Of a DNA stretch of 38,049 bases, positions 2,838 through 22,155 are shown piece after piece. The stretch comes from Candidatus Dormiibacterota bacterium (GTDB taxonomy: Bacteria; Patescibacteriota; Saccharimonadia; Saccharimonadales; UBA4665), in contig DASRLG010000041.1 in assembly GCA_035648575.1 (NCBI GenBank), positions 1-38,049 of the forward strand. Direction: 5' to 3'. Position 1 is the stretch's first letter; each line of letters opens with the position of its first letter. The translations under genes were made by a program, and so were the position numbers. A model generated the notes under the pieces. That model saw only the letters and a list, made by a program, of their open reading frames with translations. It was not told where the DNA came from and did not search any database.

Positions 2838-3785
2838 TCATTGCAATTCCCTCTGCAAGTGCGCCTGCGGCGCGTTGCCCTCGCCCTTGGTAATGATATC
2901 GGCCGTCAAGTTATTGAAATCCTTAAGCTGCTGCCGGGTGGCGGTATCCGGATTATAGGTATCGTAGTACAGCTCGATCAGTTCCTGGGTATCAAGCGGC
3001 AACCCCTGGATGCTGCACTGCATCAGGCCTGACAAAACTGCCTGCACCCGGTTGCGCAGCTCGGTCTTGGCGTTTTCCAGGTCCGGCTCGTTGATGACGA
3101 CATGCTGGTCTTTTTTGTTAAATAAACCGCCTATGCCCCCCAGGAAGTTTTTGCTCTGGGTCAGTGCCTTTTGGGTATCAACAACCGGGAAAAACGGAAC
3201 CACGACGTAGAATTTTTTATCCATGATGTTAGTCTGCTGGCTAAGGTCACCGATATAGCTGATGTAGTCTTCCATGAGCAGCGCCAACAGCATGTTGTCG
3301 TGCTCGGTACGGATCTTGTCGAGTTTGTTGATGTAAGGCACCAGATCAACTTTCTGCGAGCGCATGAAGATCTGAATCGGAAAATAAAGCGAGTTCAGGA
3401 ACCCCTGGTAGCTATATTCGACAGCTTCCTGCTCCTGGCTGCTCATCAGGTCGAAGTTAATACTTTTGACCATAACTACCGAACGGAAAGAGCCGTCGTT
3501 CATGATAACGATACCGTCGCGAACCTCGGCGATTTGCAAGGAGTTCTGGGTGCTGTTGGGGTGCGGGGCTGGCTTGGGGGCCTTGTCCGCGCCGACCGTA
3601 GGCATATTGAGAGGTGCCGCCGCGTTGGCGCCACCGGGTGCCGTTACGGGGGCGATTGATTGACCTGGTATCAGAGGTGATGGCAAAGGGACGGCATTCG
3701 TCATGTCCGGTACGGGAACAGGAACGGCCGCGGCCGGCTGAGAGGGATTAGGCTGGTTTGGTGTCGTTTGTGTTGACGGATCCAT
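2838..3785 (-). CDS. T4SS-associated protein with a Pro-rich N-terminus and a VirB4-N-terminal-domain-like body, no P-loop
   Basis: ORF 2838..3821; the track start at 3821 is TTG and the first ATG is at 3785 (MDPSTQTT...). The body IAEVRDGIVIMNDGSFRSVVMVKSINFDLMSSQEQEAVEYSYQGFLNSLYFPIQIFMRSQKVDL resembles N-terminal non-ATPase domains of VirB4/TraC-type proteins as I recall them. No Walker A motif is seen. Confidence 0.7.
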   Translation of the reverse strand: MDPSTQTTPNQPNPSQPAAAVPVPVPDMTNAVPLPSPLIPGQSIAPVTAPGGANAAAPLNMPTVGADKAPKPAPHPNSTQNSLQIAEVRDGIVIMNDGSFRSVVMVKSINFDLMSSQEQEAVEYSYQGFLNSLYFPIQIFMRSQKVDLVPYINKLDKIRTEHDNMLLALLMEDYISYIGDLSQQTNIMDKKFYVVVPFFPVVDTQKALTQSKNFLGGIGGLFNKKDQHVVINEPDLENAKTELRNRVQAVLSGLMQCSIQGLPLDTQELIELYYDTYNPDTATRQQLKDFNNLTADIITKGEGNAPQAHLQRELQ

Positions 3786-3843
3786 GGTACGTTCGTTTGC
3801 CCCACCTTTATCTGTGATCAAGTATCACTCTTGCAATAACGAA

Positions 3844-5007
3844 TCAGTGTAATGAAATCATGACCTCGTTGCGCGGCTGGTTTTCGTCACCCCTGTTTTT
3901 GCGGGCCTCGCGAGCCAAAGTCGCCACATCGAAATCATCGTTCTTGGCCAAGGATAGTATAGCAGGATCACTGGTCGCTGTCACCGTATCGTTACTGGCA
4001 GCCGCCGCTGTTTGAGGGTTCGTACCGTCGCTTGGAGCCGGCATCGGAATGTCGGCTGGCGGCGCGGCCGGTTGGCTCCCCAGAGGCTGCAAGGTGCGCA
4101 AATTACCAAACGACACCTGCCGCGAACTGGCCTGCGCCGACAAGCGGGCCGCCAACGCGGCTTCATCCGGTGTTGTCTCACCGGCCACCGGCGCCGGAAT
4201 CGTCGCGCTGGTGACCATCGGTTCCGGTGGGCGCGCCATGGCCGCGGCACCCGTCCCGGCTGGCATTGCCATGGCTGGCGCGGCTGCTGCCTGCCCGTTA
4301 TTCATGAACCAGCTGTCACTTGCCGCTGCCGGCTGCTTAGCCTTAGCCGCCTCGTCCTGCCGGACATCATTAAGCTGGTCGAGCAATTGCTGCCGGCGGT
4401 TCCGGCTGGAACGGTCGATCATAGTATCAAACTGCTGGGCAATAGGGTTATTGGTCTCGTCAAGCATGTCGTCAGCCGCCGGCATATCGTCAGCGGGTAC
4501 GTCCTGGGGCATGCTGCTGATATCGATTAAACGGTCGGAGTTCATGTCGGCTACCACCGGGGAATAAACGCCGCTGCTGGCGTTTTTGGTCGCCCAACCG
4601 CGGCTGTCGATAGTATCGGCCAACGCCCGCAAGCGACTTGTGACTTCCGTCTGGCTAAGCCCGTTGGTCAGTACCCGCTCGACTTTTTTAGGCACGGTTA
4701 TGGTTACCAGTTCCTTAACGCCGCTCTGGTTCCAGATCCGCTGCCGCGGCTTAAACCAGAACCTTAACTTAGCCAACGCCCAGGTCTCCGTCGGCTGGTC
4801 CCGCCCGAACGGAAAGGCAAAAAACGCGCAGAACAACGCCGGCGGCAAAAACAGCACCAGCAAAAACGCGGCGTTCTTAGTCACCAAAATAAAACATATA
4901 TAGAACAGGAACACGGCCACCAAGGCGAAAATAAACTGCCTCAACGTCAACGGCCCCAGGATTTTGTCCTCGGCCTCGATATCCTGAATCAGTTTGTATG
5001 TTGCCAC
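3844..5007 (-). CDS. PrgI/TcpE/VirB3-like small-membrane-domain T4SS protein with a long disordered Ala/Pro-rich C-terminus
   Basis: The N-terminus YKLIQDIEAEDKILGPLTLRQFIFALVAVFLFYICFILV...LLVLFLPPALFCAFFAF has the LT.RQ motif followed by two TM helices, as in the PrgI family. It lies immediately upstream of the VirB4-type genes. Confidence 0.65.
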   Translation of the reverse strand: MATYKLIQDIEAEDKILGPLTLRQFIFALVAVFLFYICFILVTKNAAFLLVLFLPPALFCAFFAFPFGRDQPTETWALAKLRFWFKPRQRIWNQSGVKELVTITVPKKVERVLTNGLSQTEVTSRLRALADTIDSRGWATKNASSGVYSPVVADMNSDRLIDISSMPQDVPADDMPAADDMLDETNNPIAQQFDTMIDRSSRNRRQQLLDQLNDVRQDEAAKAKQPAAASDSWFMNNGQAAAAPAMAMPAGTGAAAMARPPEPMVTSATIPAPVAGETTPDEAALAARLSAQASSRQVSFGNLRTLQPLGSQPAAPPADIPMPAPSDGTNPQTAAAASNDTVTATSDPAILSLAKNDDFDVATLAREARKNRGDENQPRNEVMISLH

Positions 5008-6968: not shown

Positions 6969-9900
6969 TTAGTGATTACGGGCGGCTTCGTCGGCGGCTT
7001 TCTGCGCTTCCGCGGCATCTTGCTGCTGCCTGGCCTGTTCGCGCGGGTCGTAATCTCTTGGTTTAGGCAGGGGTACGCCTTCTTTGCGGAGCTCTTCGGA
7101 CATGTCGCTCCATTCGGCCTTGGCGCCAGTGTCGTTGTAGCCGTAAGGACCGGCCTGGTTGACGATAAGGTCCTGCATGGCGCGGGCTGCGCCGGTGTAG
7201 TTGCCTTGATCGTCTTTCTCTCTGGCGATATCCATGTTGGTGAGACGGGCCGACTGTACGGCTTCGGCCTTGGCACCGGTCCAGTCGGAGGCCTTGATGC
7301 TCATAGCGTTGGACCTCGCGGCTCCCTTGCGCTTCTGGCGCTGGGCCGCGGTTAGATTAGAATTGTCGTCAAAGACAGAGTAGAACTTGCCCTTGGTGCC
7401 GGTGGCCGATCCGTCTTTGTCCACCATGACGCCATGTCCCCACCTGGTTTCCGGCCGCAGGCGGGCGCCGGCGTCGGAAGCTTTCTTGACGACGCTCTGG
7501 GCGTAGGAGGCGCCGCCGCCCTTGCCCTTGCGCGCGGTTATGGAGTTGCCGATTTCCGCCAGGTCCTGTTGTTCGGCGCGGCCGGCGTTGGCTAGGCCGA
7601 GGGCACCCATCGTCTGGACGTCGGCCCGGAACAGCTCGGGGTTGTTGCTTATATTGGCCAGGGTACCGCGAGCGGTGTGAAGGCCGGCGGCGGCCAGTTG
7701 CTCTTTTTCCCTGCCGCTGCTGCCGAGGATCTCGGTTATCTTATCGATGTCTTTCAGGGACCTTGGCGCTCTTGATACGCCTGTCTCTCTGTCTATGAAG
7801 CCTTCGTCCATAAGTTGCTTCTGGGTCTCCTCGCTGAAGCCGCGGTATGAACCGGATAACGCGCGCCAGCCTTCGTAATGCATGCCGCCCTTGGATTCTA
7901 TTTCTTGCCAGCCCTTGGTGCTGTGGTCGATCATGGCGTCGTCGATTTTGTTTTCTATGCCGGCCGCGAAACGCTTGAAGCCGGGCGTGCCCTTTTGGCC
8001 AAGCTTGCCCGGAACCATTTCGTCGGCGTCGAAGGCCCATTCAGCCAGCCGGCTGCCCATTCGGCCGACACTCCTGCCATTCTTGCCGAAGCGGCCGAAC
8101 TCGGGGTTCCAAAGGTAGCCGGCGCGGGCGCGCTGGACGCGGCCGGCAGTGTGCTCTTTGCGCTTCTTGCTCAGGTAGCCATAACCGCCTTGGGCGCGGC
8201 TATTGACCAGGTTGGCCATACCGCCCAGCGCCCCGCCGGCAAACTTGAAAGTCATAGGAATCATTAAATAGGGCGCGAAGTAGGCGATGAAGCCGATTAT
8301 TTGGCTCAGTATGTCGGAACTCTGGTTGACGGCGATAGCCGAAAATACGCGGCCAATGGCTATGAAGCCGGCGATCAGGGGGAACATGAACAAGGCTTTG
8401 CTGAAATTTTCCCACCAGAACTTAAAAGCCCTTTGGAAATAAGGATTAGGCAATATGTAAGCGGCAATCCCTAGGGGCGACAGTATGGTCAGGCCAATGA
8501 CGACGAGAGCTCTCAAGATCAGTGTCGCGAAGCCGACTACAACCGCCAGGGCGGCCATACCGACGAAAGTCAATAAGCCGAACACCCCCATGGCAACCCC
8601 GACGATCGAGGGGATTAGTACCGCGGCGCTTTGGGAGAGGCTAAGGTGGATGCTGGTATTGATACCGATGAAGGGCGCTTCTATCAGGCGCCTTATGCCA
8701 AACCCCAGGTCGTTTGTAAGCGTTATGAAAAACCTCATTAACTGCCAGGACATAGCTATAGCAATCGATGCTATCAGAAGTCGCGGCAGGACTTTACGAA
8801 TAGTATAAGCGTCCAGCATTTCCAGGCCCAAAGCCTGGGCTATCAGGACTAATATGGTTGCCAGTGCTATCAGGCCGAGTGCTATATCCCGGAAATACCC
8901 CCAAGCCGTATGGTAAGCGTCACATTGGCCGCCGGTACCGCAAGAGCCGTCAGGATTGGCAAAGATCTGGTCGGGATTATCAGAATTACCGTTGGTACCC
9001 ACCGACAATTCGCTGTTAATCGCGCCGTCCAGGGCGCTGACTATGCCTACGAGTCCCTTTACGATGCCGCAGACCAGCCAATTAAGCGGGTTAAGCCCGG
9101 CATGACAGTTTAATGACAGGTCTTGGCTAGAGCTGCCGCCCCCGCCACCGCCAACACCGCTACTGCCTGCCGCCTCGTCACTGGCCAGCTTGCCGTCGGC
9201 ACCTTTGGTGTCAGCCAGTTGAATCAGTATGCCGTCGCTCTCATAACAACCCTGCCCGTCACTATGGAGCGAAGCGCCGGTAATAATGGACGGGAAGCCG
9301 GTTGATAAGGGGTTGTCGCTTGAACTGTTCTTTATGACCAGCGTCCCGCTGGTGGGCCAGCCCGAAGCGCCGCTAATTTGGCTTTGGCAGGTTTTGTTAT
9401 AGCTTCTGCCTTTGGCAGCCATATAGGGGCCGCTGCCAGCGGTGTTTTGCGTAAAGACAATAGCCGTCTGGTCCGAAGTACTTATAGTGCCGCTATCCTG
9501 CCAGACGAAGTAATAATTGAATCCGGCCGGGTCGGAATTAGGACTCAGGGTTATTGGATCATCGGTTTCTACGCAATTATTATTGCCGCCGCCCGGCGTG
9601 GTGAATAGATGGATAGTAGCCGAAGCCGTAGCGTTTTGGTAATTGGAGCCGTCGGAGTTAGGGAAGCCGTTTATATAGTTCTTCGCCGAGCAGCTATCGC
9701 TGGAGTTTTGAAGCACGAAGCTCAGGTTATTGTCTTCCTTATTATCATAATAAACGCTACTGCCGACGCTGATGTGGCTATGGTCGATCCACTGGCCTAT
9801 CTGGGGGGACTGCTTGCCGGTTATGGTTATAGAGCCGTAATCTTTTGAGATCCCGCCGATATCGCTGCCGCAATCCGACTTTATGTCCGCGCTGGAGGAG

Positions 9901-10202
9901 CCGTCTTGGCCGTCACTCGTGAAGATGTATATGTCCGGGCAAAGGTTGCCGTTAGGTCCGTTGGTACCGTTACCGCTGAAATACACGCCCGTCGGATACT
10001 TCTTGAGGTCCACCCCGTTTTTGGTGAAGGTCAGGGTACTGTTTTGGTCGGCCGGGTCGGGGCCGACAACCGATTTGTTGCCGTTCGTGTAACGGTAAGT
10101 TCCATTGTCGGCTGAAGTTTTGCCGGGCAGCAGTGACAAGAACAGGACCATCACCAAGGGCAGAGCCATCCACCATATTTTTTTGCCGCTTAAATATTTC
10201 AT
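6969..10202 (-). CDS. VirB6/TrbL-like polytopic T4SS channel protein with a large extracellular N-domain and a large cytoplasmic C-domain (1077 aa)
   Basis: Signal peptide MKYLSGKKIWWMALPLVMVLFLSLLPGKTSA. About 400 aa of Ser/Gly/Asn/Asp-rich sequence with scattered Cys and a poly-Gly linker follows. Then come multiple TM helices (LIALATILVLIAQALG, LLIASIAIAMSWQLMRFFITL, AAVLIPSIVGVAMGVFGLLTFVGMAALAVVVGFATLIL and others). The C-terminus is a roughly 430-aa charged tail. Confidence 0.7.
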   Translation of the reverse strand: MKYLSGKKIWWMALPLVMVLFLSLLPGKTSADNGTYRYTNGNKSVVGPDPADQNSTLTFTKNGVDLKKYPTGVYFSGNGTNGPNGNLCPDIYIFTSDGQDGSSSADIKSDCGSDIGGISKDYGSITITGKQSPQIGQWIDHSHISVGSSVYYDNKEDNNLSFVLQNSSDSCSAKNYINGFPNSDGSNYQNATASATIHLFTTPGGGNNNCVETDDPITLSPNSDPAGFNYYFVWQDSGTISTSDQTAIVFTQNTAGSGPYMAAKGRSYNKTCQSQISGASGWPTSGTLVIKNSSSDNPLSTGFPSIITGASLHSDGQGCYESDGILIQLADTKGADGKLASDEAAGSSGVGGGGGGSSSQDLSLNCHAGLNPLNWLVCGIVKGLVGIVSALDGAINSELSVGTNGNSDNPDQIFANPDGSCGTGGQCDAYHTAWGYFRDIALGLIALATILVLIAQALGLEMLDAYTIRKVLPRLLIASIAIAMSWQLMRFFITLTNDLGFGIRRLIEAPFIGINTSIHLSLSQSAAVLIPSIVGVAMGVFGLLTFVGMAALAVVVGFATLILRALVVIGLTILSPLGIAAYILPNPYFQRAFKFWWENFSKALFMFPLIAGFIAIGRVFSAIAVNQSSDILSQIIGFIAYFAPYLMIPMTFKFAGGALGGMANLVNSRAQGGYGYLSKKRKEHTAGRVQRARAGYLWNPEFGRFGKNGRSVGRMGSRLAEWAFDADEMVPGKLGQKGTPGFKRFAAGIENKIDDAMIDHSTKGWQEIESKGGMHYEGWRALSGSYRGFSEETQKQLMDEGFIDRETGVSRAPRSLKDIDKITEILGSSGREKEQLAAAGLHTARGTLANISNNPELFRADVQTMGALGLANAGRAEQQDLAEIGNSITARKGKGGGASYAQSVVKKASDAGARLRPETRWGHGVMVDKDGSATGTKGKFYSVFDDNSNLTAAQRQKRKGAARSNAMSIKASDWTGAKAEAVQSARLTNMDIAREKDDQGNYTGAARAMQDLIVNQAGPYGYNDTGAKAEWSDMSEELRKEGVPLPKPRDYDPREQARQQQDAAEAQKAADEAARNH

Positions 10203-10352
10203 AGTCTAGCGGGGAGCAGCTCTATGTATTTTTGTAAACCACCGGGAACGTTTTTGTAGTCAGGCATAGTACGCTTGAAGTTATATTGCTTTAAATATAG
10301 CACATATAAAGGATTAGCGTTATCAAGAAGCCTGCCCATCCCTATCGCATGC

Positions 10353-10381
10353 TTGTCAATAGGTAACTTAAGCACTATAGT
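10353..10381 (+). promoter_or_regulatory. Candidate promoter TTGTCA-17-TATAGT for the pilin array
   Basis: TTGTCA at 10353-10358, a 17-nt spacer, TATAGT at 10376-10381. The ATG at 10391 is only 9 nt downstream and no SD is visible. Confidence 0.4.
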
Positions 10382-10390
10382 TATATAAAA

Positions 10391-11191
10391 ATGAACATTA
10401 CAACACACAAAGCTAAAAAGATAACTAAGAGGATCAGCCGATTTCTGTTCTGTTTCCTGACGGCGGCATTTGTTTTAGCGCCATCGGTAGCCTTGGCCGC
10501 GTCACAGGTTTACGGCATAGCCTGTGCCACCAGCGATGTTAAGGTCAGTAAACATTCAGCGGACTGTTCGGCCGCAGCAGATACCTTAAGACTGTATGAG
10601 ATAGGAAACAAAAGCCCACGCAAGCCCTATCCCACAGGCTATGGCATAACCGTGGTAACGGTAGACTGCGGTAAAAGCAGTCCGACTACACCCCTGTTAA
10701 ACGGGCCGGTTAAGTTTGCCTGCAAGAAATCATCAATAAAACCCACGCTCAAAGGCGCCACCATAATCCAACATGCCGCCGCGGTATCAGGCTCGGGCAG
10801 CCTGGGCGGCCAGGTTACCTGTGATCCGACGACCGATGCCACCTGCCCGGTCTGCCAAAGCAGCAACCCGCCGGCCGGTTGTGTCGATTGCGGCAGCGGT
10901 ACCTGTTCGGACCCCGCGGCTAACCCCAATACTCCTTGCGACACTAACGGCTGCGATTTAATCGGCAAGTATATCGACCCGTTCATTAATTTGTTCTCGG
11001 TGACTTTCGGTTTTATAGCCGTAGCCTCTATTATTATGGGAGGGATACAATACGCGTCCTCGACTGGCGACCCGCAAAAAGTCACGGCGGCCAAACAACG
11101 AATTACCAATACTCTGATTGCCCTGGTAGCTTACTTCTTCCTTTATGGTTTCCTGCAATTCCTGATACCGGGGGGAGCATTTAACGGATGA
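10391..11191 (+). CDS. VirB2/TrbC-like T4SS pilin paralog 1 with a long Cys-rich N-terminal extension (266 aa)
   Basis: N-terminal signal/TM segment. About 14 Cys lie in the mature region. The C-terminal pilin module is FGFIAVASIIMGGIQYASSTGDPQKVTAAKQRITNTLIALVAYFFLYGF, i.e. two TM helices flanking a G..Y.S.GD loop. Confidence 0.8.
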   Translation: MNITTHKAKKITKRISRFLFCFLTAAFVLAPSVALAASQVYGIACATSDVKVSKHSADCSAAADTLRLYEIGNKSPRKPYPTGYGITVVTVDCGKSSPTTPLLNGPVKFACKKSSIKPTLKGATIIQHAAAVSGSGSLGGQVTCDPTTDATCPVCQSSNPPAGCVDCGSGTCSDPAANPNTPCDTNGCDLIGKYIDPFINLFSVTFGFIAVASIIMGGIQYASSTGDPQKVTAAKQRITNTLIALVAYFFLYGFLQFLIPGGAFNG

Positions 11192-11198
11192 AAAACCT

Positions 11199-11585
11199 AT
11201 GTTAAGCGCACTACTATCAATAATGGCGACCGACACCTGTGACAAGTCAGGTGATTTCTTCGGCCTGCGTCCCTGGTATCATTATCTGCCGTCAACAGAC
11301 TTCTCGGGTTGCGATCTGAGTAACTTCACCTTCCTGCCAAGCTCTACCCAGGCCAGCGACGTGCCGCTGGTAATGTTGGCCGTTATCGATGACCTGTTGC
11401 GCATAGCCGGGATCGTGGCCGTGGCTTTTGTCGTCGTGGGCGCCGTCAGGTATATAACCAGCCAGGGCAATCCCGAACAGACAGCCCAGGCCCAATCAAC
11501 CGTCATTAACGCTTTAATAGGTACGGCCATCGCCGTCGCGGCCGCCACTTTCGTCGGCTTTGTCGGCAGTCGGTTGGGGGGCTAA
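11199..11585 (+). CDS. VirB2/TrbC-like T4SS pilin paralog 2
   Basis: C-terminal module IAGIVAVAFVVVGAVRYITSQGNPEQTAQAQSTVINALIGTAIAVAAATF. Upstream CDKSGDFFGLRPWYHYL...GCD region with a Cys pair. Starts 8 nt after paralog 1. Confidence 0.8.
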   Translation: MLSALLSIMATDTCDKSGDFFGLRPWYHYLPSTDFSGCDLSNFTFLPSSTQASDVPLVMLAVIDDLLRIAGIVAVAFVVVGAVRYITSQGNPEQTAQAQSTVINALIGTAIAVAAATFVGFVGSRLGG

Positions 11586-11586
11586 T

Positions 11587-11901
11587 ATGAATATGATATT
11601 GCGAATTTTGGCAGAGTCGATAAGCCCTGGTAACCTGCCTGGCGCGCCGACACCGGCGAACCCCACTCCTAACAGCCTGACCAGCGTGGCTGCTTTGCAA
11701 ACTATCCTGGGCGTGGTGTTTGGTATAATCGGTGCCCTAGCGTTGTTGATCATAACGGTATCCGGACTTCGCTATATAACCTCGGCCGGTGACCCGGAGA
11801 AAACGACCAGGGCCAGAAATGGCATCATCTACGCGCTCGTAGGATTGATTTTGGCCATATCGGCTGAAGCGATAGTAGCCTTCGGAGTCAAAAGATTATG
11901 A
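11587..11901 (+). CDS. VirB2/TrbC-like T4SS pilin paralog 3
   Basis: The track ORF starts at 11560, but the in-frame ATG at 11587 (MNMILRIL...) begins 2 nt after the previous stop. Module VFGIIGALALLIITVSGLRYITSAGDPEKTTRARNGIIYALVGLILAISAEAIV. Confidence 0.75.
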   Translation: MNMILRILAESISPGNLPGAPTPANPTPNSLTSVAALQTILGVVFGIIGALALLIITVSGLRYITSAGDPEKTTRARNGIIYALVGLILAISAEAIVAFGVKRL

Positions 11902-12329
11902 TAAAAAGACTGCTTATGGCCGTAGCCCTGCTTGTCCTGTGCCTGTTCGCGACTCCGCGCGTAGCCTCGGCTTACGATATTTTCGGCGGCGTGGACTGCA
12001 CAAGCGCTACGAATTCAAGCTCCGCGGTCTGTAAAGGCCAGCCGGCCACCGACCCGACTACCGGCAAAGCTGCCGACCCCATAGGCGGCCCCAACGGCCT
12101 GCTGGCCAAGATCACGAATATCGTGGCTTACGCCGGCGGTGCCGCCGCAGTTATCATAGTGATTGTCAGCGCCTTGCGCTTCGTTACTTCCGGCAGTGAT
12201 GTCAGTACCAATTCCCGCACCGACGCCGATGTCGAAAACGCCCGGCGCAGCCTTGGCGGCGCCTTAATCGGCCTAGCCATCATAGTCCTGGCCCGCGCGT
12301 TCATATTATTTGTATTGAATAAAGTGTGA
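11898..12329 (+). CDS. VirB2/TrbC-like T4SS pilin paralog 4
   Basis: ATGA 4-nt overlap with paralog 3. Signal peptide MIKRLLMAVALLVLCLFATPRVASA and a Cys pair. Module AAAVIIVIVSALRFVTSGSDVSTNSRTDADVENARRSLGGALIGLAIIVLA. Confidence 0.8.
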   Translation: MIKRLLMAVALLVLCLFATPRVASAYDIFGGVDCTSATNSSSAVCKGQPATDPTTGKAADPIGGPNGLLAKITNIVAYAGGAAAVIIVIVSALRFVTSGSDVSTNSRTDADVENARRSLGGALIGLAIIVLARAFILFVLNKV

Positions 12330-12339
12330 AGGAGAAACC

Positions 12340-12786
12340 GTGAAACGAACCTTATTAAGCATAGTAGCTTCGCTGGCAATAGTCATGATGCCGCTACCGG
12401 TGTTGGCGGTAGGAGCTTCCTCGTCGTCCACGGGTTGCGGCACTGCTTCTACCCCGAAGACCCAGGTACTGAACGGCTTGGGTGAAACCGGCAGTAATTG
12501 TAGTGATACCGGCGTCGGTAATGCCATCGCCGCTGGCGTAAATATCTTGAGCCTGGTAGTCGGCGTGGCCGCGGTCGTAATGGTCATCCTGGGCGGCTTC
12601 AAATATATAACTTCCGGGGGCGAAGCCAGTAAGGTCTCCAACGCCAAGAACAGCCTGGTTTACGCCTTGGTCGGTTTGTTTATCGCGGCTTTGGCACAAC
12701 TCTTAGTGCATTTCGTACTTGTCCAGTCGAGCCAGGCGGCCTGTCCGCCCGGCAGCAAAGATGCCGCTTGCAAGCCGGCCCACTAG
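12340..12786 (+). CDS. VirB2/TrbC-like T4SS pilin paralog 5
   Basis: GTG start preceded by GAAGGAG with a 5-nt spacing. Signal peptide present. Module VVGVAAVVMVILGGFKYITSGGEASKVSNAKNSLVYALVGLFIAALAQLLVHFVL, plus a C-terminal Cys pair. Confidence 0.8.
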   Translation: MKRTLLSIVASLAIVMMPLPVLAVGASSSSTGCGTASTPKTQVLNGLGETGSNCSDTGVGNAIAAGVNILSLVVGVAAVVMVILGGFKYITSGGEASKVSNAKNSLVYALVGLFIAALAQLLVHFVLVQSSQAACPPGSKDAACKPAH

Positions 12787-12812
12787 CCCTAACCGATAAG
12801 ATGAAAGGCGAC

Positions 12813-12841
12813 TTGATTCCGCTAACGCCTTGTAGTATAAG
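12813..12841 (+). promoter_or_regulatory. Candidate internal promoter TTGATT-17-TATAAG ahead of pilin paralog 6
   Basis: TTGATT at 12813-12818, a 17-nt spacer, TATAAG at 12836-12841, inside the 86-nt gap between paralogs 5 and 6. Confidence 0.35.
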
Positions 12842-12872
12842 TTAAGTAGACGTAAAGAAAGGTATACATAAC

Positions 12873-13337
12873 ATGATCCAAAAAATTAAAAGATATATGT
12901 ACATGCTCGCCGGGACCATAATGCTGGCTTTGCCCGGAGTGGTATCAACCGCGGTCGCGACCGCGACACCGTCCTCAACCTGTAACCAGATCAGTACTGG
13001 CATTGCCAACGGCATTAACCAAGCGACCGGCACAAGCAGCAGCGGCGCTAACGCCGTTGACTGTTCGTCAAGCAGCGTTAACGGCAATACGATCGGTAAA
13101 GCCGCCAAAGGCCTAGTTAACGTTTTCTCCATAATAGTCGGTGTCGTAGCCGTGGTCATGATTATCTACGGCGGCTTCCGCTACATCACCTCCGGTGGCG
13201 ATAGCGGCCGGGTCGGTAATGCCAAGAACAGCCTGATTTACGCTATTGTCGGACTGGTCATAGTGGCGCTGGCACAGCTTATCGTGCACTTCGTCCTTGG
13301 GCAGACCACCAGTATCCAGTCCAATGTTACTGGGTGA
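12873..13337 (+). CDS. VirB2/TrbC-like T4SS pilin paralog 6
   Basis: Signal peptide and a Cys pair. Module IVGVVAVVMIIYGGFRYITSGGDSGRVGNAKNSLIYAIVGLVIVALAQLIVHFVL is nearly identical in pattern to paralog 5. Confidence 0.8.
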   Translation: MIQKIKRYMYMLAGTIMLALPGVVSTAVATATPSSTCNQISTGIANGINQATGTSSSGANAVDCSSSSVNGNTIGKAAKGLVNVFSIIVGVVAVVMIIYGGFRYITSGGDSGRVGNAKNSLIYAIVGLVIVALAQLIVHFVLGQTTSIQSNVTG

Positions 13338-13381
13338 TAAACCCGCGTACGTTTAGTAATTCTGAGACTTTCAGGTACATG

Positions 13382-13410
13382 AAAAAACTTCCCGGTAACG
13401 GGAAGTTTTT
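13382..13410. terminator. Bidirectional intrinsic terminator hairpin between the pilin array and hsp20
   Basis: AAAAAACTTCCCG-GTAA-CGGGAAGTTTTT: a perfect stem with an A-run on one side and a T-run on the other, between convergent genes. Confidence 0.75.
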
Positions 13411-13426
13411 CGTAACCAGGCCCTGT

Positions 13427-13906
13427 CTATAGAACTTGGATTTTCTTGACTGTGTCCTGCTGGACTTTGCCGAAGCTGATGGTTAGAACTCCATCCTTGA
13501 GAACGGCTTCGATTTCTTCTTCTTTGACCGGTACCGGCAAAGCGATGGTGCGGCTGAATTCGCCCCAGTAGCATTCCTGCAAGAAGTAGTTCTCTACGCC
13601 GTCTTCGCTGCCGGAACTCAGGGTTCCGCGGATTGTCAGCTGGTTGTCGGAAATACTGACGTCAAGGTCGTTCTTATTAACACCGGCGGTGCGGGCTTTG
13701 ACAACCAGCTTTTCACGGGTTTCATAAACGTCAACTGCCAGTTGGCCGGGCACGGAATCATCTTCGTCCCATTCGTCTTCGCCGATTGGCGAGTTGGCCG
13801 GTTCGGCTACGGCGTCGGTTGGCTCAGCCGTGTCATCACCCAAAAAGGCTGCGGTTAGTTCGTCTTCTTCGAGCAGGAGATCGTCGTCGCGGTTGCGTCG
13901 CGCCAT
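13427..13906 (-). CDS. Hsp20/alpha-crystallin family small heat-shock protein
   Basis: Alpha-crystallin domain pattern: LAVDVYETREKLVVKARTAGVNKNDLDVSISDNQLTIRG...FSRTIALPVPVKEEEIEAVLKDGVLTISF. The track start at 13924 is GTG. I prefer the ATG at 13906, which has GGAGGG 10 nt upstream. Confidence 0.85.
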   Translation of the reverse strand: MARRNRDDDLLLEEDELTAAFLGDDTAEPTDAVAEPANSPIGEDEWDEDDSVPGQLAVDVYETREKLVVKARTAGVNKNDLDVSISDNQLTIRGTLSSGSEDGVENYFLQECYWGEFSRTIALPVPVKEEEIEAVLKDGVLTISFGKVQQDTVKKIQVL

Positions 13907-14082
13907 AGTAGTGTTACCCTCCACTAAATTAATTGCCGTACTGGCTGCCCTTTTACTTCTATAAAGTCCGGGGCGTCGAGAAAGATTAAAAATCTTGCAT
14001 TTTTGTATTAGTAGCAGTATAGCTTAGGCGATGAAGCCTGCGCAACGTGCCGAACACATATTTACAACACATTAAACACAAC

Positions 14083-14748
14083 ATGAGCCTTTTTGATACC
14101 CTTACCAGTAAAATCGCGCCCTATGACTGCCTGGCCTGCGGAGCCGAGGGCCAGTTACTATGCGCCCCTTGTGCCGGCAAGATGACCCCTGTACCGGAAC
14201 GTTGCTACGGTTGCCGTGAACTTTCACAGGGCTGGCTAATTTGTCCGGCTTGCCGTCCTGCCAGTCGGCTTAGGAGCGTGCGAATAGGCACAACCTATAC
14301 TGGCAGCTCCAAAACCCTGATCTGGAAACTTAAACTATCCGGCGCTCGGGCAGCAGCCAGGATTATGGCCCAACACCTGGTATCCCTAACCATAACCGAC
14401 GATGTGATAATAATCATGCCGGTACCCACGGCGACCAGCCGGGCGCGCCGCCGCGGCTATGACCAGGCGAAACTCCTGGCCCGCGAGCTATCCAGGCAAA
14501 CGCGCCTGCCCTACCGCGATTACCTGGCACGCCGGGGCCAGACACACCAGCACGGCTTAACGCGCCGGGAGCGCCTGACCCAACTGTCGGCTGCTTTCCG
14601 CGTGACTAACCCAAAAGCCATCAAGGGAGCTAATATCATGCTGGTGGACGACGTAGTAACTACTGGTGCTACCCTGGAAGCCGCGGCCGAGGTTCTCCGG
14701 GCCGCCGGTGCCGCCCGGATCGACGCGGTGGTTTTCGCCCAGCCCTAA
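14083..14748 (+). CDS. comFC: ComF-family protein (ComFC-like phosphoribosyltransferase-domain competence protein)
   Basis: N-terminal Cys4 zinc-finger pattern CLACG...CAPC...CYGC...CPAC. C-terminal PRTase motif IMLVDDVVTTGATLEAA. ATG at 14083; the track start at 14047 is GTG. Confidence 0.8.
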   Translation: MSLFDTLTSKIAPYDCLACGAEGQLLCAPCAGKMTPVPERCYGCRELSQGWLICPACRPASRLRSVRIGTTYTGSSKTLIWKLKLSGARAAARIMAQHLVSLTITDDVIIIMPVPTATSRARRRGYDQAKLLARELSRQTRLPYRDYLARRGQTHQHGLTRRERLTQLSAAFRVTNPKAIKGANIMLVDDVVTTGATLEAAAEVLRAAGAARIDAVVFAQP

Positions 14749-14792: not shown

Positions 14793-16256
14793 ATGGAAGA
14801 GGTAACACGAAAAATCGTAAAACTTATCAGTTCGGGCTGGGTATTCGTATTGGCCTTGCTGATCTTCGTGGCTGAAACGGCCTATCTGGCACTGACGAGC
14901 CGTTTCCCCATGGCTTTCGACGAGTCTTACCACTTCAGTTTGATAAAGTTTTTCAGCCATCGTCTTAATCCGATAGTCACCAGCCAGGCCAGCGGCACTT
15001 ACGGTCTCGGGGCGATCGTCCAAAATCCGTCTTTCCTATATCACTACCTGTTGAGCTTTCCCTATCGGTTCATAGCTTTATTCACCAATAGTCCTGAAGT
15101 AGAGGCCACCAGCCTGCGTTTCGTGAATATCGCTTTGGCCTTGGCCAGTTTGATCATTATGCGTAAGCTCTTGCGGCTGATGAATTTATCGGATGCCTTG
15201 GTCAATATAGTAATGCTGGTTTTCGCGCTAACGCCGATGGTCGTGCTGCTGTCGGCGCAGATTAATTATGACAATTTGCTGATTCTGGCAGTCACCTTGT
15301 GTCTCTACGAGACGGTCACGTTCAGCAAGAAACTCGACCGGAAAATCTTTGACGCGAAAGGCTTGCTGACGCTGGCGTGCTTATGTTTGTTCACTAGCGT
15401 GGTGAAGTTCGTTTTCCTGCCGATCTTCTTGGCCATAACGGCTTTCGTGGGCTTCAAGCTGGCTTTGTACCGGCCGCCCGGAGGGACCGGCCTAATAGCC
15501 GTCGCCAAGAAAAGCTTTGCCGATATCAGCAAATCCACCAAGCTGTTCTTGCTGGCAGCCGGCCTCCTGGGCAGCTTCTTTTTCGTCAGGCTTTACGGCG
15601 TCAACCTGGTGAAATATCACAATCCGGCACCCCAATGCAACCAGGTCCTGAACATCCAGGACTGCACGAGGTACTATGCCTGGGACAGCAACTATAACAC
15701 CCGGCAACAGGAGCTGGCCCACCCGACGACCAACATGATGAACGTGCCGCAATATAACGGCTACTGGCTACTGGTAAACGGCTTCGGCCTTTTTGGGGCC
15801 ATCATGCCGTTGCTGGGTCCTTATTATATCTCCCCTACCTTTTGCCTGATCGTTATAATCCTCTGGGCCGCGGCAATCGCCTGCACCATAGTGAACTTCA
15901 AAAAAGTTCGGAAGGGGAATAAAAACCTATTAACGGTAATTGGGATAAGCCTGGTTTACGTATTAGCCATCTGGGGAAGAAACTACCACGATTACTTGCA
16001 GCTGGGCAAACCGGTAGCTATAGATGGCCGGTATTTAGTTCCGGTACTCATATATTTTTACGCTTTGTTGGGGCTGGGCACCCAGTACGCGCTGGCGGAC
16101 AGGCGGCCGCGTCAATTAATTATTAAGCTGGCTTTGGTAGCGCTAACGGTTTTTTCATTCATATATTACGGCGGATTCGTGCAGTACATCAGCCACATCA
16201 GCCCGTCTTACGGCCGGATAAGCCCGTCCAACAACTTCTTCATAGGCAAAGAATAA
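14793..16256 (+). CDS. Polytopic membrane protein, GT-C-fold glycosyltransferase-like (ArnT/PMT-like)
   Basis: 487 aa with about 12 predicted hydrophobic helices. The FDESYHF motif after TM1 resembles the first-loop DE motif of GT-C enzymes. The assignment is by pattern only. Confidence 0.55.
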   Translation: MEEVTRKIVKLISSGWVFVLALLIFVAETAYLALTSRFPMAFDESYHFSLIKFFSHRLNPIVTSQASGTYGLGAIVQNPSFLYHYLLSFPYRFIALFTNSPEVEATSLRFVNIALALASLIIMRKLLRLMNLSDALVNIVMLVFALTPMVVLLSAQINYDNLLILAVTLCLYETVTFSKKLDRKIFDAKGLLTLACLCLFTSVVKFVFLPIFLAITAFVGFKLALYRPPGGTGLIAVAKKSFADISKSTKLFLLAAGLLGSFFFVRLYGVNLVKYHNPAPQCNQVLNIQDCTRYYAWDSNYNTRQQELAHPTTNMMNVPQYNGYWLLVNGFGLFGAIMPLLGPYYISPTFCLIVIILWAAAIACTIVNFKKVRKGNKNLLTVIGISLVYVLAIWGRNYHDYLQLGKPVAIDGRYLVPVLIYFYALLGLGTQYALADRRPRQLIIKLALVALTVFSFIYYGGFVQYISHISPSYGRISPSNNFFIGKE

Positions 16257-20823: not shown

Positions 20824-22155
20824 TTATTGTATTAGTCGGGGCGGCTTAGGGCGCGGCGGGTTTTTGCCGATTGGCGGCAAAGGCTTTGACGTTGTCGATG
20901 ACGGACTTCCGTCCGGACCAGAAATCTCAGGAGCTGAAGTAGGCGGCTCTCGGTGTGGCGCCAGCCGTAAATTACCAGTGTCCGCTGGCGAATCACCGGG
21001 TTTAGAGCCGGTCTCCTTAGGTGTTTTGCCTCGAGCTGATGGCTTATCATTACGTTGACGGCTCTTGAAGAGCACGATGAAAATCACTACCGCGGCCACT
21101 ATGAAAGCTATGCCGAACGGCAAATAATCCCGCACCAGTTGGGGTTCAAGCCGACGCATGAAATCACTGATCGGCTGTTTGAAATCACTGCCCAAAGCCC
21201 CTTTGACAGATATATTAGCAAACTTGTTCACCGAAGCGTCAGCCACAGCCTTAAGGACCACCAAAATCACTCCGGCAACCAGCAAAACAGCTCCGATTCG
21301 ACGCACGCCGCGCCGCCGTTCAGGTGCGATGAAGAAGATGCCTAGAGCGCTCAGCAAGGCCACACCGCTAAATATCAAAGGCAGCTTGAGGCCGAACTGG
21401 TAAGCCTTAGGCGCCCACGACAGTTTCTGGTAATAAGGCTGGCCCTGGCTGGTGCTGCTCGCCTGCCCCAACTGGTTCTGGTTCAGCGAGCTGGCCGTAA
21501 TAACCGGATTGCTCAGGAAGTCACTGCTATCGTTAACTTCCTGGGTGACCTGGGTGCCTTCGGTTTTGGGATCAACCGTCGATGGCCGGCAATTTACCGA
21601 CATCAAGTCAACCGGTATCGACAACTGGGCTAATTGCTGGGGGGAGCACACCGGCAGGGTCGCTAAACGAGTCTGGGCTGCCTGCCCCACCTGCTGGGCG
21701 AAACTTTGTTTGGCCGAGCTTAGGTCTATCTTGAAATCAGGGGTGGCCTTCTTGCCGGCCAGCCAGTCGTAGTTGCTGTTAATAAAGATGTTGACGCTCT
21801 GCCGGACCAGGTCGGGTGAAAAAGCGGCTTCAGCTGCCTGCTGGACAGTCGGGTCGCTCAGCGAAACCGAACCCGAGTTGCCGCCATCAGAGCTGGATTT
21901 CTCAGCCTGTTGGAGTACGGAAGCAGTCACATGATCATAAATCTTGCTGTTGGCCAGCAAACCTTCAAGCTTAGCCGGTGCCAACGCGTGATTAAGGTCT
22001 AAAACTCCAACGCCTCCTACGAGAGACACGAGCAACAAAAAAGCCAGAAAATGCACGAACCCCTTACGCAACCAAATCATTACCCCATTGTAGTCGAAAC
22101 CACCGATTTTGGGTACAGTTTCCCTGCCCGACAAAGTATTAAATGTAGACATCAT
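20824..22155 (-). CDS. Membrane protein with a Pro/Lys-rich C-terminal tail, co-operonic with the SGNH hydrolase
   Basis: Track ORF 20824..22170 starts at TTG. The ATG-ATG at 22155/22152 overlaps the upstream gene's end by 17 nt. N-terminal TM FVHFLAFLLLVSLVGGVGVL and three later TM segments. The tail is ...KPGDSPADTGNLRLAPHREPPTSAPE...PPRPKPPRLIQ. Confidence 0.7.
   Translation of the reverse strand: MMSTFNTLSGRETVPKIGGFDYNGVMIWLRKGFVHFLAFLLLVSLVGGVGVLDLNHALAPAKLEGLLANSKIYDHVTASVLQQAEKSSSDGGNSGSVSLSDPTVQQAAEAAFSPDLVRQSVNIFINSNYDWLAGKKATPDFKIDLSSAKQSFAQQVGQAAQTRLATLPVCSPQQLAQLSIPVDLMSVNCRPSTVDPKTEGTQVTQEVNDSSDFLSNPVITASSLNQNQLGQASSTSQGQPYYQKLSWAPKAYQFGLKLPLIFSGVALLSALGIFFIAPERRRGVRRIGAVLLVAGVILVVLKAVADASVNKFANISVKGALGSDFKQPISDFMRRLEPQLVRDYLPFGIAFIVAAVVIFIVLFKSRQRNDKPSARGKTPKETGSKPGDSPADTGNLRLAPHREPPTSAPEISGPDGSPSSTTSKPLPPIGKNPPRPKPPRLIQ

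Follow-up and report, generated by a model that had tools for sequence, protein, structure and literature searches.

An array of six pilin-like genes

The window analysed in this work is a stretch of 38,049 nucleotides (nt) of a soil Saccharimonadales chromosome with ~55% G+C (contig DASRLG010000041.1, assembly GCA_035648575.1); the nearest genome is a soil metagenome-assembled genome, OY970322.1, with 84-88% protein identity. It contains an array of six consecutive plus-strand genes at 10391-13337, here called p1 to p6, which an earlier note on this DNA had described as tandem VirB2/TrbC-like pilin paralogs of a type IV secretion system (T4SS). All six genes are present in the open reading frame (ORF) calls at those coordinates, as follows (lengths in amino acids, aa):

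10391-11191, + strand: p1, 266 aa, orthogroup 1; 13 cysteines, 1 in the signal peptide and 12 in the mature region
11199-11585, + strand: p2, 128 aa, orthogroup 2; 2 cysteines, 0 in a signal peptide and 2 mature
11587-11901, + strand: p3, 104 aa, orthogroup 3; 0 cysteines, 0 in a signal peptide and 0 mature
11898-12329, + strand: p4, 143 aa, orthogroup 4; 3 cysteines, 1 in the signal peptide and 2 mature
12340-12786, + strand: p5, 148 aa, orthogroup 5; 4 cysteines, 0 in the signal peptide and 4 mature
12873-13337, + strand: p6, 154 aa, orthogroup 6; 2 cysteines, 0 in the signal peptide and 2 mature

The first five genes are tightly packed, with intergenic gaps of -4 to +10 nt in the window and likewise in the related loci L001 and L003. 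The start of p3 lies 1 nt past the p2 stop codon, and p4 overlaps p3 by 4 nt (ATGA). The longest ORF of p3 begins at TTG 11560 (113 aa); the ATG at 11587 was taken as its start, as for L001 and L003, its equivalent being the one used by gene callers in the close relative L001.

All six proteins end in a common module, which in the hydropathy profiles consists of two long hydrophobic helices with a short polar loop between them. The loop motif proposed in the earlier note, G(G)x(R/K/Q)(Y/F)(I/A/V)(T/S)S.G(D/N/E), holds for p1, p2, p3, p5 and p6, and is matched more loosely by p4, which deviates from it (LRFVTSGSD) and has a longer loop. Outside the hairpin module the proteins are scarcely alignable, and the N-terminal heads are as divergent as had been claimed, with pairwise identities of 26-40% and the single exception of p5 and p6 (49%). 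By hydropathy, an N-terminal hydrophobic segment resembling a Sec signal peptide is found in p1, p4, p5 and p6, and none in p2 and p3. The paired cysteines that had been noticed in five of the six paralogs are also there, the mature region containing an even number of them in p1, p2, p4, p5 and p6. At all six positions, nearly every ortholog has an even number of head cysteines, which fits extracellular disulfides. The long extension attributed to p1 does measure ~150 aa (residues ~37-189), with a cysteine count of 13 instead of the ~14 first given.

Six orthogroups in a fixed order

The relatives were sampled at one genome per species, giving 80 Saccharimonadales loci in which ORFs were called and searched with a hidden Markov model (HMM) of the module. 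A canonical set was defined by the 49 non-redundant arrays (the window and 48 foreign ones) with exactly six single-domain genes. When the foreign arrays were compared by BLAST with the six window proteins, a test that is independent of the per-position HMMs described next, positions 1, 2, 3 and 6 matched the same-position paralog in 48/48 arrays, the agreement being weaker at position 4 (30/48) and position 5 (37/48). With HMMs built for each position, the orthogroup order 1-2-3-4-5-6 was recovered in 64/64 loci with a complete upstream side, in these layouts:

plain 1-2-3-4-5-6: 49 loci
one extra type-6 copy: 6 loci
three type-6 copies: 1 locus
four type-6 copies: 1 locus
2+3 fused: 4 loci
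2+3 fused, with an extra type 6: 2 loci
1+2 fused: 1 locus

The only variants among the 64 loci are extra type-6 genes (10 loci), the 2+3 fusion (6) and the 1+2 fusion (1). Orthogroups 1-5 are never tandemly amplified; type 6 alone is, with 2-4 copies that close the array on its 3' side (L058 9743-11593, L065 10007-11327, L043, L060, L064, L071, L072, L083, L082 and L084). The 2+3 fusion (L069 8433-9113, L075 8467-9129, L080 8421-9107, L081 8372-9052, L082 8516-9091 and L084 2522-3097) yields one two-hairpin protein, has appeared in at least two lineages and is compatible with an out-in-out-in-out topology. The 1+2 fusion is found at L070 7483-8649.

Each array position has its own conserved head motif, and at position 1 the protein length varies from 118 to 298 aa between species. 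The dN/dS ratios against L001 are 0.07-0.13 for all six genes, with 0.02-0.06 for the modules and 0.08-0.19 for the heads, so all six are under purifying selection. The disabling mutations in relatives that the earlier note had allowed for were not found: all six genes are intact, and their orthologs in Southlakia epibionticum are essential. The array thus consists of six distinct, anciently diverged orthogroups in fixed order, each with its own head. This applies to p5 and p6 as well, which had been taken for a recent duplication. They are the closest pair, but the proteins are only 49% identical and the module DNA 71% identical over 170 nt, and each has its own orthologs in 64/64 complete loci, which indicates that the duplication is old.

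Family placement of the hairpin module

The profile searches suggested in the earlier note gave a divided answer, strong for the Pfam T4SS_pilin family and weaker for TrbC/VirB2. Against PF18895 (T4SS_pilin), the scores are 29.5 bits for p1, 40.5 for p2, 47.8 for p3, 24.2 for p4, 42.6 for p5 and 57.0 for p6, with E-values from 2e-15 to 4e-5; the gathering cutoff is 26.6 bits, so that p4 falls just short of it and the other five exceed it. Judged by these E-values, the module match is not due to chance. The p4 protein scores 61 bits on the family HMM built here, and its orthologs in L001 and L003 carry PF18895 on record. All six also match NCBIfam NF045849, the Mbov_0395/MMCAP2_0565 family of pilin-like conjugal transfer proteins (19.7-38.2 bits, E 8e-10 to 5e-4), in every case below the equivalog cutoff of 40 bits, so that they are to be read as related proteins and not as equivalog members.

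The TrbC/VirB2 model PF04956 aligns below its cutoff, on the same hairpin and in the same register, with p6 (19.6 bits, E = 0.0011), p2 (15.5), p5 (15.3) and p4 (10.7), and it is on record for about a quarter of the p6 orthologs among the matches listed. In a profile-profile alignment with hhalign, 467 modules against five plasmid VirB2/TrbC proteins gave a score of 19.8 (P = 0.005, probability 7%) over 61 columns covering the whole hairpin, and all controls scored lower: 20 column shuffles gave at most 13.9, the reversed alignment 13.4 and AtpE (ATP synthase subunit c) 7.6. A relation to VirB2 is plausible but not demonstrated. The homologs of p6 number more than 3000, essentially all from Candidatus Saccharimonadales, and are named 'pilin' by NCBI.

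Regarding other families, p3 comes close to PF19607 (DUF6112; 24.8 bits, cutoff 25), which is also matched by SEML1_0019 of S. epibionticum; literature on DUF6112 was not found, and it may be another branch of the same hairpin superfamily. Type IV pilins were considered and rejected, as the six sequences contain no class III motif (G|F/M-xxxE) and have no type IV pilin Pfam match. A PHROGs scan gave nothing meaningful, which speaks against a phage link.

Expression signals

Two promoter-like elements and a terminator frame the array:

10353-10381, + strand: promoter-like site of the p1-p5 operon, TTGTCA-17-TATAGT (10/12 matches in a consensus scan)
12813-12862, + strand: internal promoter and 5' untranslated region of p6, with -35 TTGATT at 12813-12818, a 17-nt spacer and -10 TATAAG at 12836-12841
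~12855-12862, + strand: Shine-Dalgarno sequence of p6, AAGAAAGG, as read from the sequence
13382-13410, between p6 (+) and hsp20 (-): bidirectional intrinsic-terminator hairpin A6-CTTCCCG-GTAA-CGGGAAG-T5, found by folding

At the head of the operon, 9 nt separate the TATAGT -10 hexamer from the p1 ATG, and no Shine-Dalgarno sequence is present; a similar TTG..-17-TATAGT-N8-9-ATG layout occurs in ~12 relatives. The short distance and the missing Shine-Dalgarno sequence suggest that p1, the first gene, is leaderless or weakly translated, and the p1-p5 mRNA is probably leaderless or nearly so.

The 86-nt gap before p6 is different, as it holds the TTGATT-17-TATAAG element together with the strong AAGAAAGG ribosome-binding site. 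The promoter of its own that had been proposed for p6 is supported by alignment of the related loci at the start codon, in which the motif stands at an equal distance from the p6 start in ~30/35. Such recurrence at a fixed distance points to a conserved promoter and not to a chance match. The simple consensus scan missed this promoter because the last base of its -10 hexamer is a G, and it also missed the terminator after p6, owing to its rules. A scan of 9800-14100 against Rfam returned no RNA families.

The individual pilins

The first protein, p1, is built of a signal peptide (~1-36), a disulfide-rich β-domain head (38-127), a cysteine-rich linker (131-188) and the pilin hairpin (190-258). 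In its AlphaFold2 model the β-domain 38-127 has a predicted local distance difference test (pLDDT) score of ~80, the cysteine-rich linker is poorly predicted and the hairpin is present. Across 18 orthologs C45, C59, C93, C111, C183 and C188 are invariant, and the middle six-cysteine insert is found in some orthologs only. Common to the position 1 orthologs are the motif CxxxxCD, placed ahead of the first helix, and a tail with FLIPGG. The p1 protein may be a minor subunit of the tip or adhesin type.

The head of p2 contains the conserved motif C..FFGL.PWY.YL..C, followed by the hairpin, and has no canonical signal peptide. At the N-terminus of p2 and its orthologs (window 11199-11240) there is a hydrophobic stretch of ~10-15 residues ending in ...(F)AA..C, with an invariant cysteine; it is shorter than a normal signal peptide and loosely lipobox-like, and the head is 50 aa long with 2 cysteines. 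The shortest of the six is p3, which has no signal peptide and whose orthologs are free of cysteine. In p4 a signal peptide and a two-cysteine head precede the most divergent hairpin of the set, and in p5, which also has a signal peptide and a two-cysteine head, the hairpin is followed by a C-terminal tail that adds 2 cysteines.

Finally, p6 combines a signal peptide and a small head with one conserved cysteine pair (C37, C64) with the most conserved hairpin. Its orthologs share an MIQKIK start and the one cysteine pair. The AlphaFold2 model, made with 25 orthologs, shows one helix for the signal peptide, a short one in the head and then the long hairpin (H71-106/H114-152), with a mean pLDDT of 69. 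Orthologs of p6 have a mean pairwise module identity of 0.70, those of the other five 0.43-0.54, and in the p6 module 29 of the 70 columns are at least 90% conserved, compared with 4-13 in the other modules.

Neighbourhood and chromosomal setting

The array is transcribed divergently from a cluster of T4SS genes and is followed by two genes of other function:

851-2800, - strand: VirB4-like ATPase (NF045971, CD1110-family VirB4, 350.8 bits, cutoff 325)
2838-3821, - strand: TrsD/TraC-like protein (weak TrsD match)
3844-5007, - strand: PrgI (VirB3-like) fusion protein, the PrgI domain occupying residues 8-91 of 387 aa
5052-6812, - strand: unassigned 586-aa gene between the PrgI fusion and the VirB6-like gene
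6969-10202, - strand: extended VirB6-like protein, 1077 aa, whose orthologs in L001 and L003 carry PF19590 (TrbL_3) and whose position is that of SEML1_0013
13427-13924, - strand: Hsp20
14047-14748, + strand: ComFC-like phosphoribosyltransferase with a double zinc ribbon

Hsp20 and ComFC follow in the same order in L001, L003 and S. epibionticum (SEML1_0020/0021). This synteny is very stable, and ComFC is non-essential in S. epibionticum ML1. The adjoining VirB4 is of the CD1110/Mbov_0397 type, that is, monoderm and MPF_FATA, and scores above the cutoff. The window copy of the VirB6-like protein has no Pfam or NCBIfam match in the scans; it shows a signal peptide, a large extracellular N-terminal region rich in cysteine, glycine and serine, a polytopic membrane domain and a long charged C-terminal tail. 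The remaining ~300 residues of the PrgI fusion protein have no family assignment.

Neither a VirB5 tip protein nor VirB1 was found in the window, and no relaxase or coupling protein was seen among its genes. The locus is flanked by housekeeping genes (ValRS, TsaD, Mur ligase, GroEL and PGI), which, with no relaxase or coupling protein seen, marks it as chromosomal; together with the synteny across species, these features led us to reject an origin in a mobile element, either an integrative and conjugative element (ICE) or a plasmid. As for disulfide formation, no VKOR or DsbA was found in the window, and a VKOR gene lies ~8 kb from the array in the relative L001. Two further genes may code for factors of the envelope or of host interaction: one product, of 963 aa, has a GDSL lipase/acylhydrolase domain in split form (22139-25030, - strand), and the other is a 487-aa polytopic membrane protein without family match (14793-16256, + strand).

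A proposed model with one major and five minor subunits

We favour, at a probability of roughly 0.6, the reading that the array is a chromosomal VirB2-like pilin operon of the Saccharimonadia T4SS, whose products form one heteromeric structure with p6 as the major and p1-p5 as the minor subunits. The positional orthology, the gene fusions and the separate p6 promoter favour heteropolymeric pili or minor pilins over interchangeable surface variants. In the proposed mechanism, each protein would sit in the membrane with both ends, the N-terminal head included, on the outer side and the basic RYITSGGD...AK loop on the inner side; four of the pilins would enter by way of a Sec signal peptide, and p2 and p3 without one. 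The VirB4/VirB3/VirB6 machine would extract the subunits and stack their hairpins into a tubular, pilus-like conduit, with the loops lining the lumen and the variable, disulfide-stabilised heads pointing outward. With its own strong promoter and ribosome-binding site, its most conserved module and its occasional amplification, p6 would act as the major, homopolymerising subunit, and p1-p5, made from one tightly coupled operon, would serve as minor subunits in priming, capping or anchoring the tube. For a tip or an element of host contact, the large cysteine-rich β-domain of p1 would come first among the candidates, and the tube would connect the epibiont to its host bacterium.

Several points weigh against this model. 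The major and minor roles are deduced from promoters and conservation, and the per-position HMMs behind the 64/64 loci were trained on the 49 canonical arrays, so that they offer an independent test for the 15 other loci only. The link to experimentally proven pilins is weak, in view of the hhalign probability of 7% and of PF04956, whose cutoff of 27.9 bits is missed by all six proteins (the best being p6, with 19.6). A Foldseek search of the Protein Data Bank (PDB) with the AlphaFold2 models of p6 and p1, which are of moderate confidence (pLDDT 65-69), gave no significant match, a hairpin being too poor in information for models of this quality; the best match to a solved pilus, 8dfu (the conjugation pilus of Aeropyrum; E = 3.9, TM-score 0.59 on the target), is not evidence. 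A profile search with p6 orthologs against PDB sequences found nothing either. To our knowledge, a T4SS pilus has yet to be demonstrated in a Patescibacterium, and the family name 'pilin' is itself inferred. The essentiality that transposon sequencing (Tn-seq) assigned to the upstream genes in S. epibionticum could partly reflect polar effects.

A serious alternative, if an unlikely one, is that the proteins form a channel or a short wall-spanning stalk in or above the cytoplasmic membrane, with no extended filament. VirB2 has a role in substrate transfer that is independent of the pilus, and we know of no pili made by monoderm T4SSs or Mycoplasma ICEs. The T4SS core is of the monoderm MPF_FATA type (PMC12102498), relatives of the module occur in the ICEs of wall-less Mycoplasma (NF045849), and the isolated filaments solved so far in Saccharimonadia are type IV pili or Pam pili and not products of the array. 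Fixed stoichiometric sets and fusions would be no less expected of a defined complex than of a polymer. What a channel explains less readily is p6, whose private promoter, extreme module conservation and amplification are features of an abundant homopolymer. Four subunits with predicted disulfide-bonded heads, that of p1 reaching ~150 aa, would also be hard to fit in a channel, and a relative displays a tube (PMC11880426) of the calibre of a conjugative pilus. Much less probable is that these are small membrane proteins of another kind (holin-like proteins, transporter accessories or Sec-secreted cargo) which resemble pilins only by their hairpin. Hairpins are indeed low in information and Foldseek offered no specific match, some homologs have been misleadingly labelled, for example 'cytochrome bd subunit 2' or 'permease', and the corresponding genes of TM7x were termed a 'Sec secreted array' by McLean 2020, as cited in PMC12102498. 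Such a coincidence would nevertheless have to account for two independently curated pilin-type models matching all six proteins, for the TrbC model falling in the same register in four paralogs, for an hhalign score to real VirB2 above all controls including ATP synthase subunit c, and for an array that in 64 species always has VirB6, VirB3 and VirB4 beside it and in ML1 shares their essentiality.

It is also quite improbable that the paralogs are interchangeable surface variants, that is, alternative major pilins with different heads that serve adaptation to host strains or evasion of defence, a role proposed for the VirB2 families of Rickettsiales, Anaplasma and Bartonella and, in PMC12102498, suggested for those of Patescibacteria. 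The heads do evolve fastest (dN/dS 0.08-0.19, against 0.02-0.06 in the modules), their length varies widely (118-298 aa for the position 1 protein), the cysteine-rich middle part of the p1 head is present in some orthologs and missing from others, and type 6 is present at 2-4 copies in 10 loci. In the survey, arrays have 2-11 genes with ~25% identity (PMC12102498), and the divergence of heads between species would fit host adaptation of an exposed surface. Against this stands the one-to-one correspondence of positions, with six orthogroups in fixed order in 64/64 loci, which is unlike a birth-and-death family. All six genes are under purifying selection with none decayed, and each of the six scored essential in S. 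epibionticum (PMC10633639). Furthermore, p2 and p3 have minimal heads and no signal peptide, and the 2+3 fusions imply that the subunits are used together and not in alternation.

The model of one major and five minor subunits may bear on a structure seen in a cultivated relative. Cryo-electron tomography of the Saccharimonadia parasite Mycosynbacter amalyticus shows a tube or 'lance', 8.6-9.0 nm wide and 61-70 nm long, with a barb at its tip, that reaches into the host (PMC11880426). The link between this lance and the array is an inference of the present analysis and not of the authors of that study; the Pam pili of M. amalyticus, considered as well, are Ig-like donor-strand pili unrelated to the six proteins. 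The calibre of the lance is close to that of conjugative pili, and conjugative pili have layers of five-fold symmetry. A more specific proposal, which we regard as doubtful, is that p1-p5, transcribed together and coupled in translation, form a hetero-pentameric starting or cap layer upon which p6 homo-pentamers are stacked, giving the ~9-nm lance of M. amalyticus, with the β-domain of p1 as its barbed tip for engaging or piercing the envelope of the host. If it were true, monoderms would have their first T4SS pilus, and it would also be the first of conjugative type in which a dedicated set of minor subunits derived from pilins replaces the VirB5 tip.

Comparison with published arrays and known systems

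The array is of a type already published, and the window adds another ortholog and no new kind of system. The view that six pilin genes in a row are unusual, based on the single VirB2 of most characterised T4SSs, does not apply to the Saccharimonadia lineage, where such arrays are in the literature (PMC10633639, PMC12102498, PMC12857230). In Southlakia epibionticum ML1, SEML1_0014-0019 are six plus-strand PF18895 genes with a VirB6-like neighbour, followed by Hsp20 and ComFC, and all six scored as growth-defective or essential in Tn-seq (Wang 2023, PMC10633639). The ML1 array has the same synteny as the window, VirB6 / six pilins / Hsp20 (-) / ComFC (+), also on the plus strand and divergent from the extended VirB6. 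The gap before its last gene is 84 nt (86 nt in the window), and its third gene, of ~103-104 aa, overlaps or abuts the second one, as here. Both arrays are chromosomal, with no relaxase or coupling protein nearby. They differ in the first gene, which encodes 266 aa with a 12-cysteine head in the window and 132 aa in SEML1_0014. The orthology of the window array to SEML1_0014-0019 is drawn from synteny, spacing and gene sizes only.

A survey of Patescibacteria describes 441 arrays of 2-11 pilin genes in 383 assemblies, with a mean within-array identity of ~25%, likens them to the variable VirB2 families of Bartonella and Anaplasma and suggests host-range versatility (Quinonero-Coronel et al. 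2025, PMC12102498); a review covers the SEML1 array and speculates on a pilus conduit (PMC12857230). The surveyed arrays are tandem PF18895/PF04956 genes near an MPF_FATA-like virB4 and are abundant in Saccharimonadia, as is the case here, the window having a within-array identity of 26-49%. They are read there as amplification and variation, whereas the present comparison shows six fixed orthogroups, fusions and an internal promoter; in PMC12102498 we saw neither orthology among arrays nor the fusion of pilin genes mentioned. The T4SS of Saccharibacteria is essential for life on host bacteria, with a function called 'completely unknown' (PMC11665869), and the pilin array is its most unusual feature, since T4SSs of monoderms normally lack pilins. 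The contribution of the present comparison is that the array is composed of six fixed, non-interchangeable parts in at least 64 species, with fusions of neighbours and a separately driven sixth gene; the exceptionally conserved sixth module and the relatives in Mycoplasma ICEs are added to this. These comparative results turn the published 'amplification and variation' into a structural model with one major and five minor subunits, which bears on the host-piercing tube of the cultivated relative M. amalyticus.

Among known systems, the Mycoplasma ICE proteins of NF045849 have an ~80-residue two-helix module that aligns end to end and are likewise encoded beside an MPF_FATA-type VirB4, but they lack the cysteine-bearing heads of the window pilins. 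In Mycoplasma ICEs the pilin-like gene is, as far as is known, single-copy. The NF045849 matches and the monoderm-type VirB4 suggest that the hairpin module may have come with the monoderm MPF_FATA machinery and not been borrowed from a diderm T4SS, a question left open by PMC12102498. The VirB2/TrbC pilins of the T-pilus, RP4 and pKM101 share with the array the two-helix hairpin, the short basic loop and the VirB3/VirB4/VirB6 neighbours. Their leader has a counterpart in only four of the six window pilins, nothing in VirB2 corresponds to the disulfide-bearing window heads of 30-150 aa, and the six genes belong to a monoderm envelope, in contrast to the one gene of the diderm systems.

The VirB2 families of Rickettsiales, Anaplasma and Bartonella also comprise several divergent tandem genes in host-dependent organisms (PMC12102498). 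They are read as variable or differentially expressed surface antigens, whereas here the number, order and types are kept in 64 species. Paralog turnover of the Rickettsiales/Bartonella kind was not encountered, the six orthogroups being present in 64/64 loci with a copy number that varies for type 6 only. A parallel in organisation, by analogy only, is offered by the minor-pilin sets FimU-PilVWXE of type IV pili and GspHIJK of type II secretion. The window pilins are not homologous to these and have neither a class III signal nor a single long N-terminal helix. In the minor-pilin sets, as proposed for the array, co-encoded subunits of low abundance share a polymerisation module and carry different heads, the major subunit is transcribed separately and one bulky head is proposed to lie at the tip.

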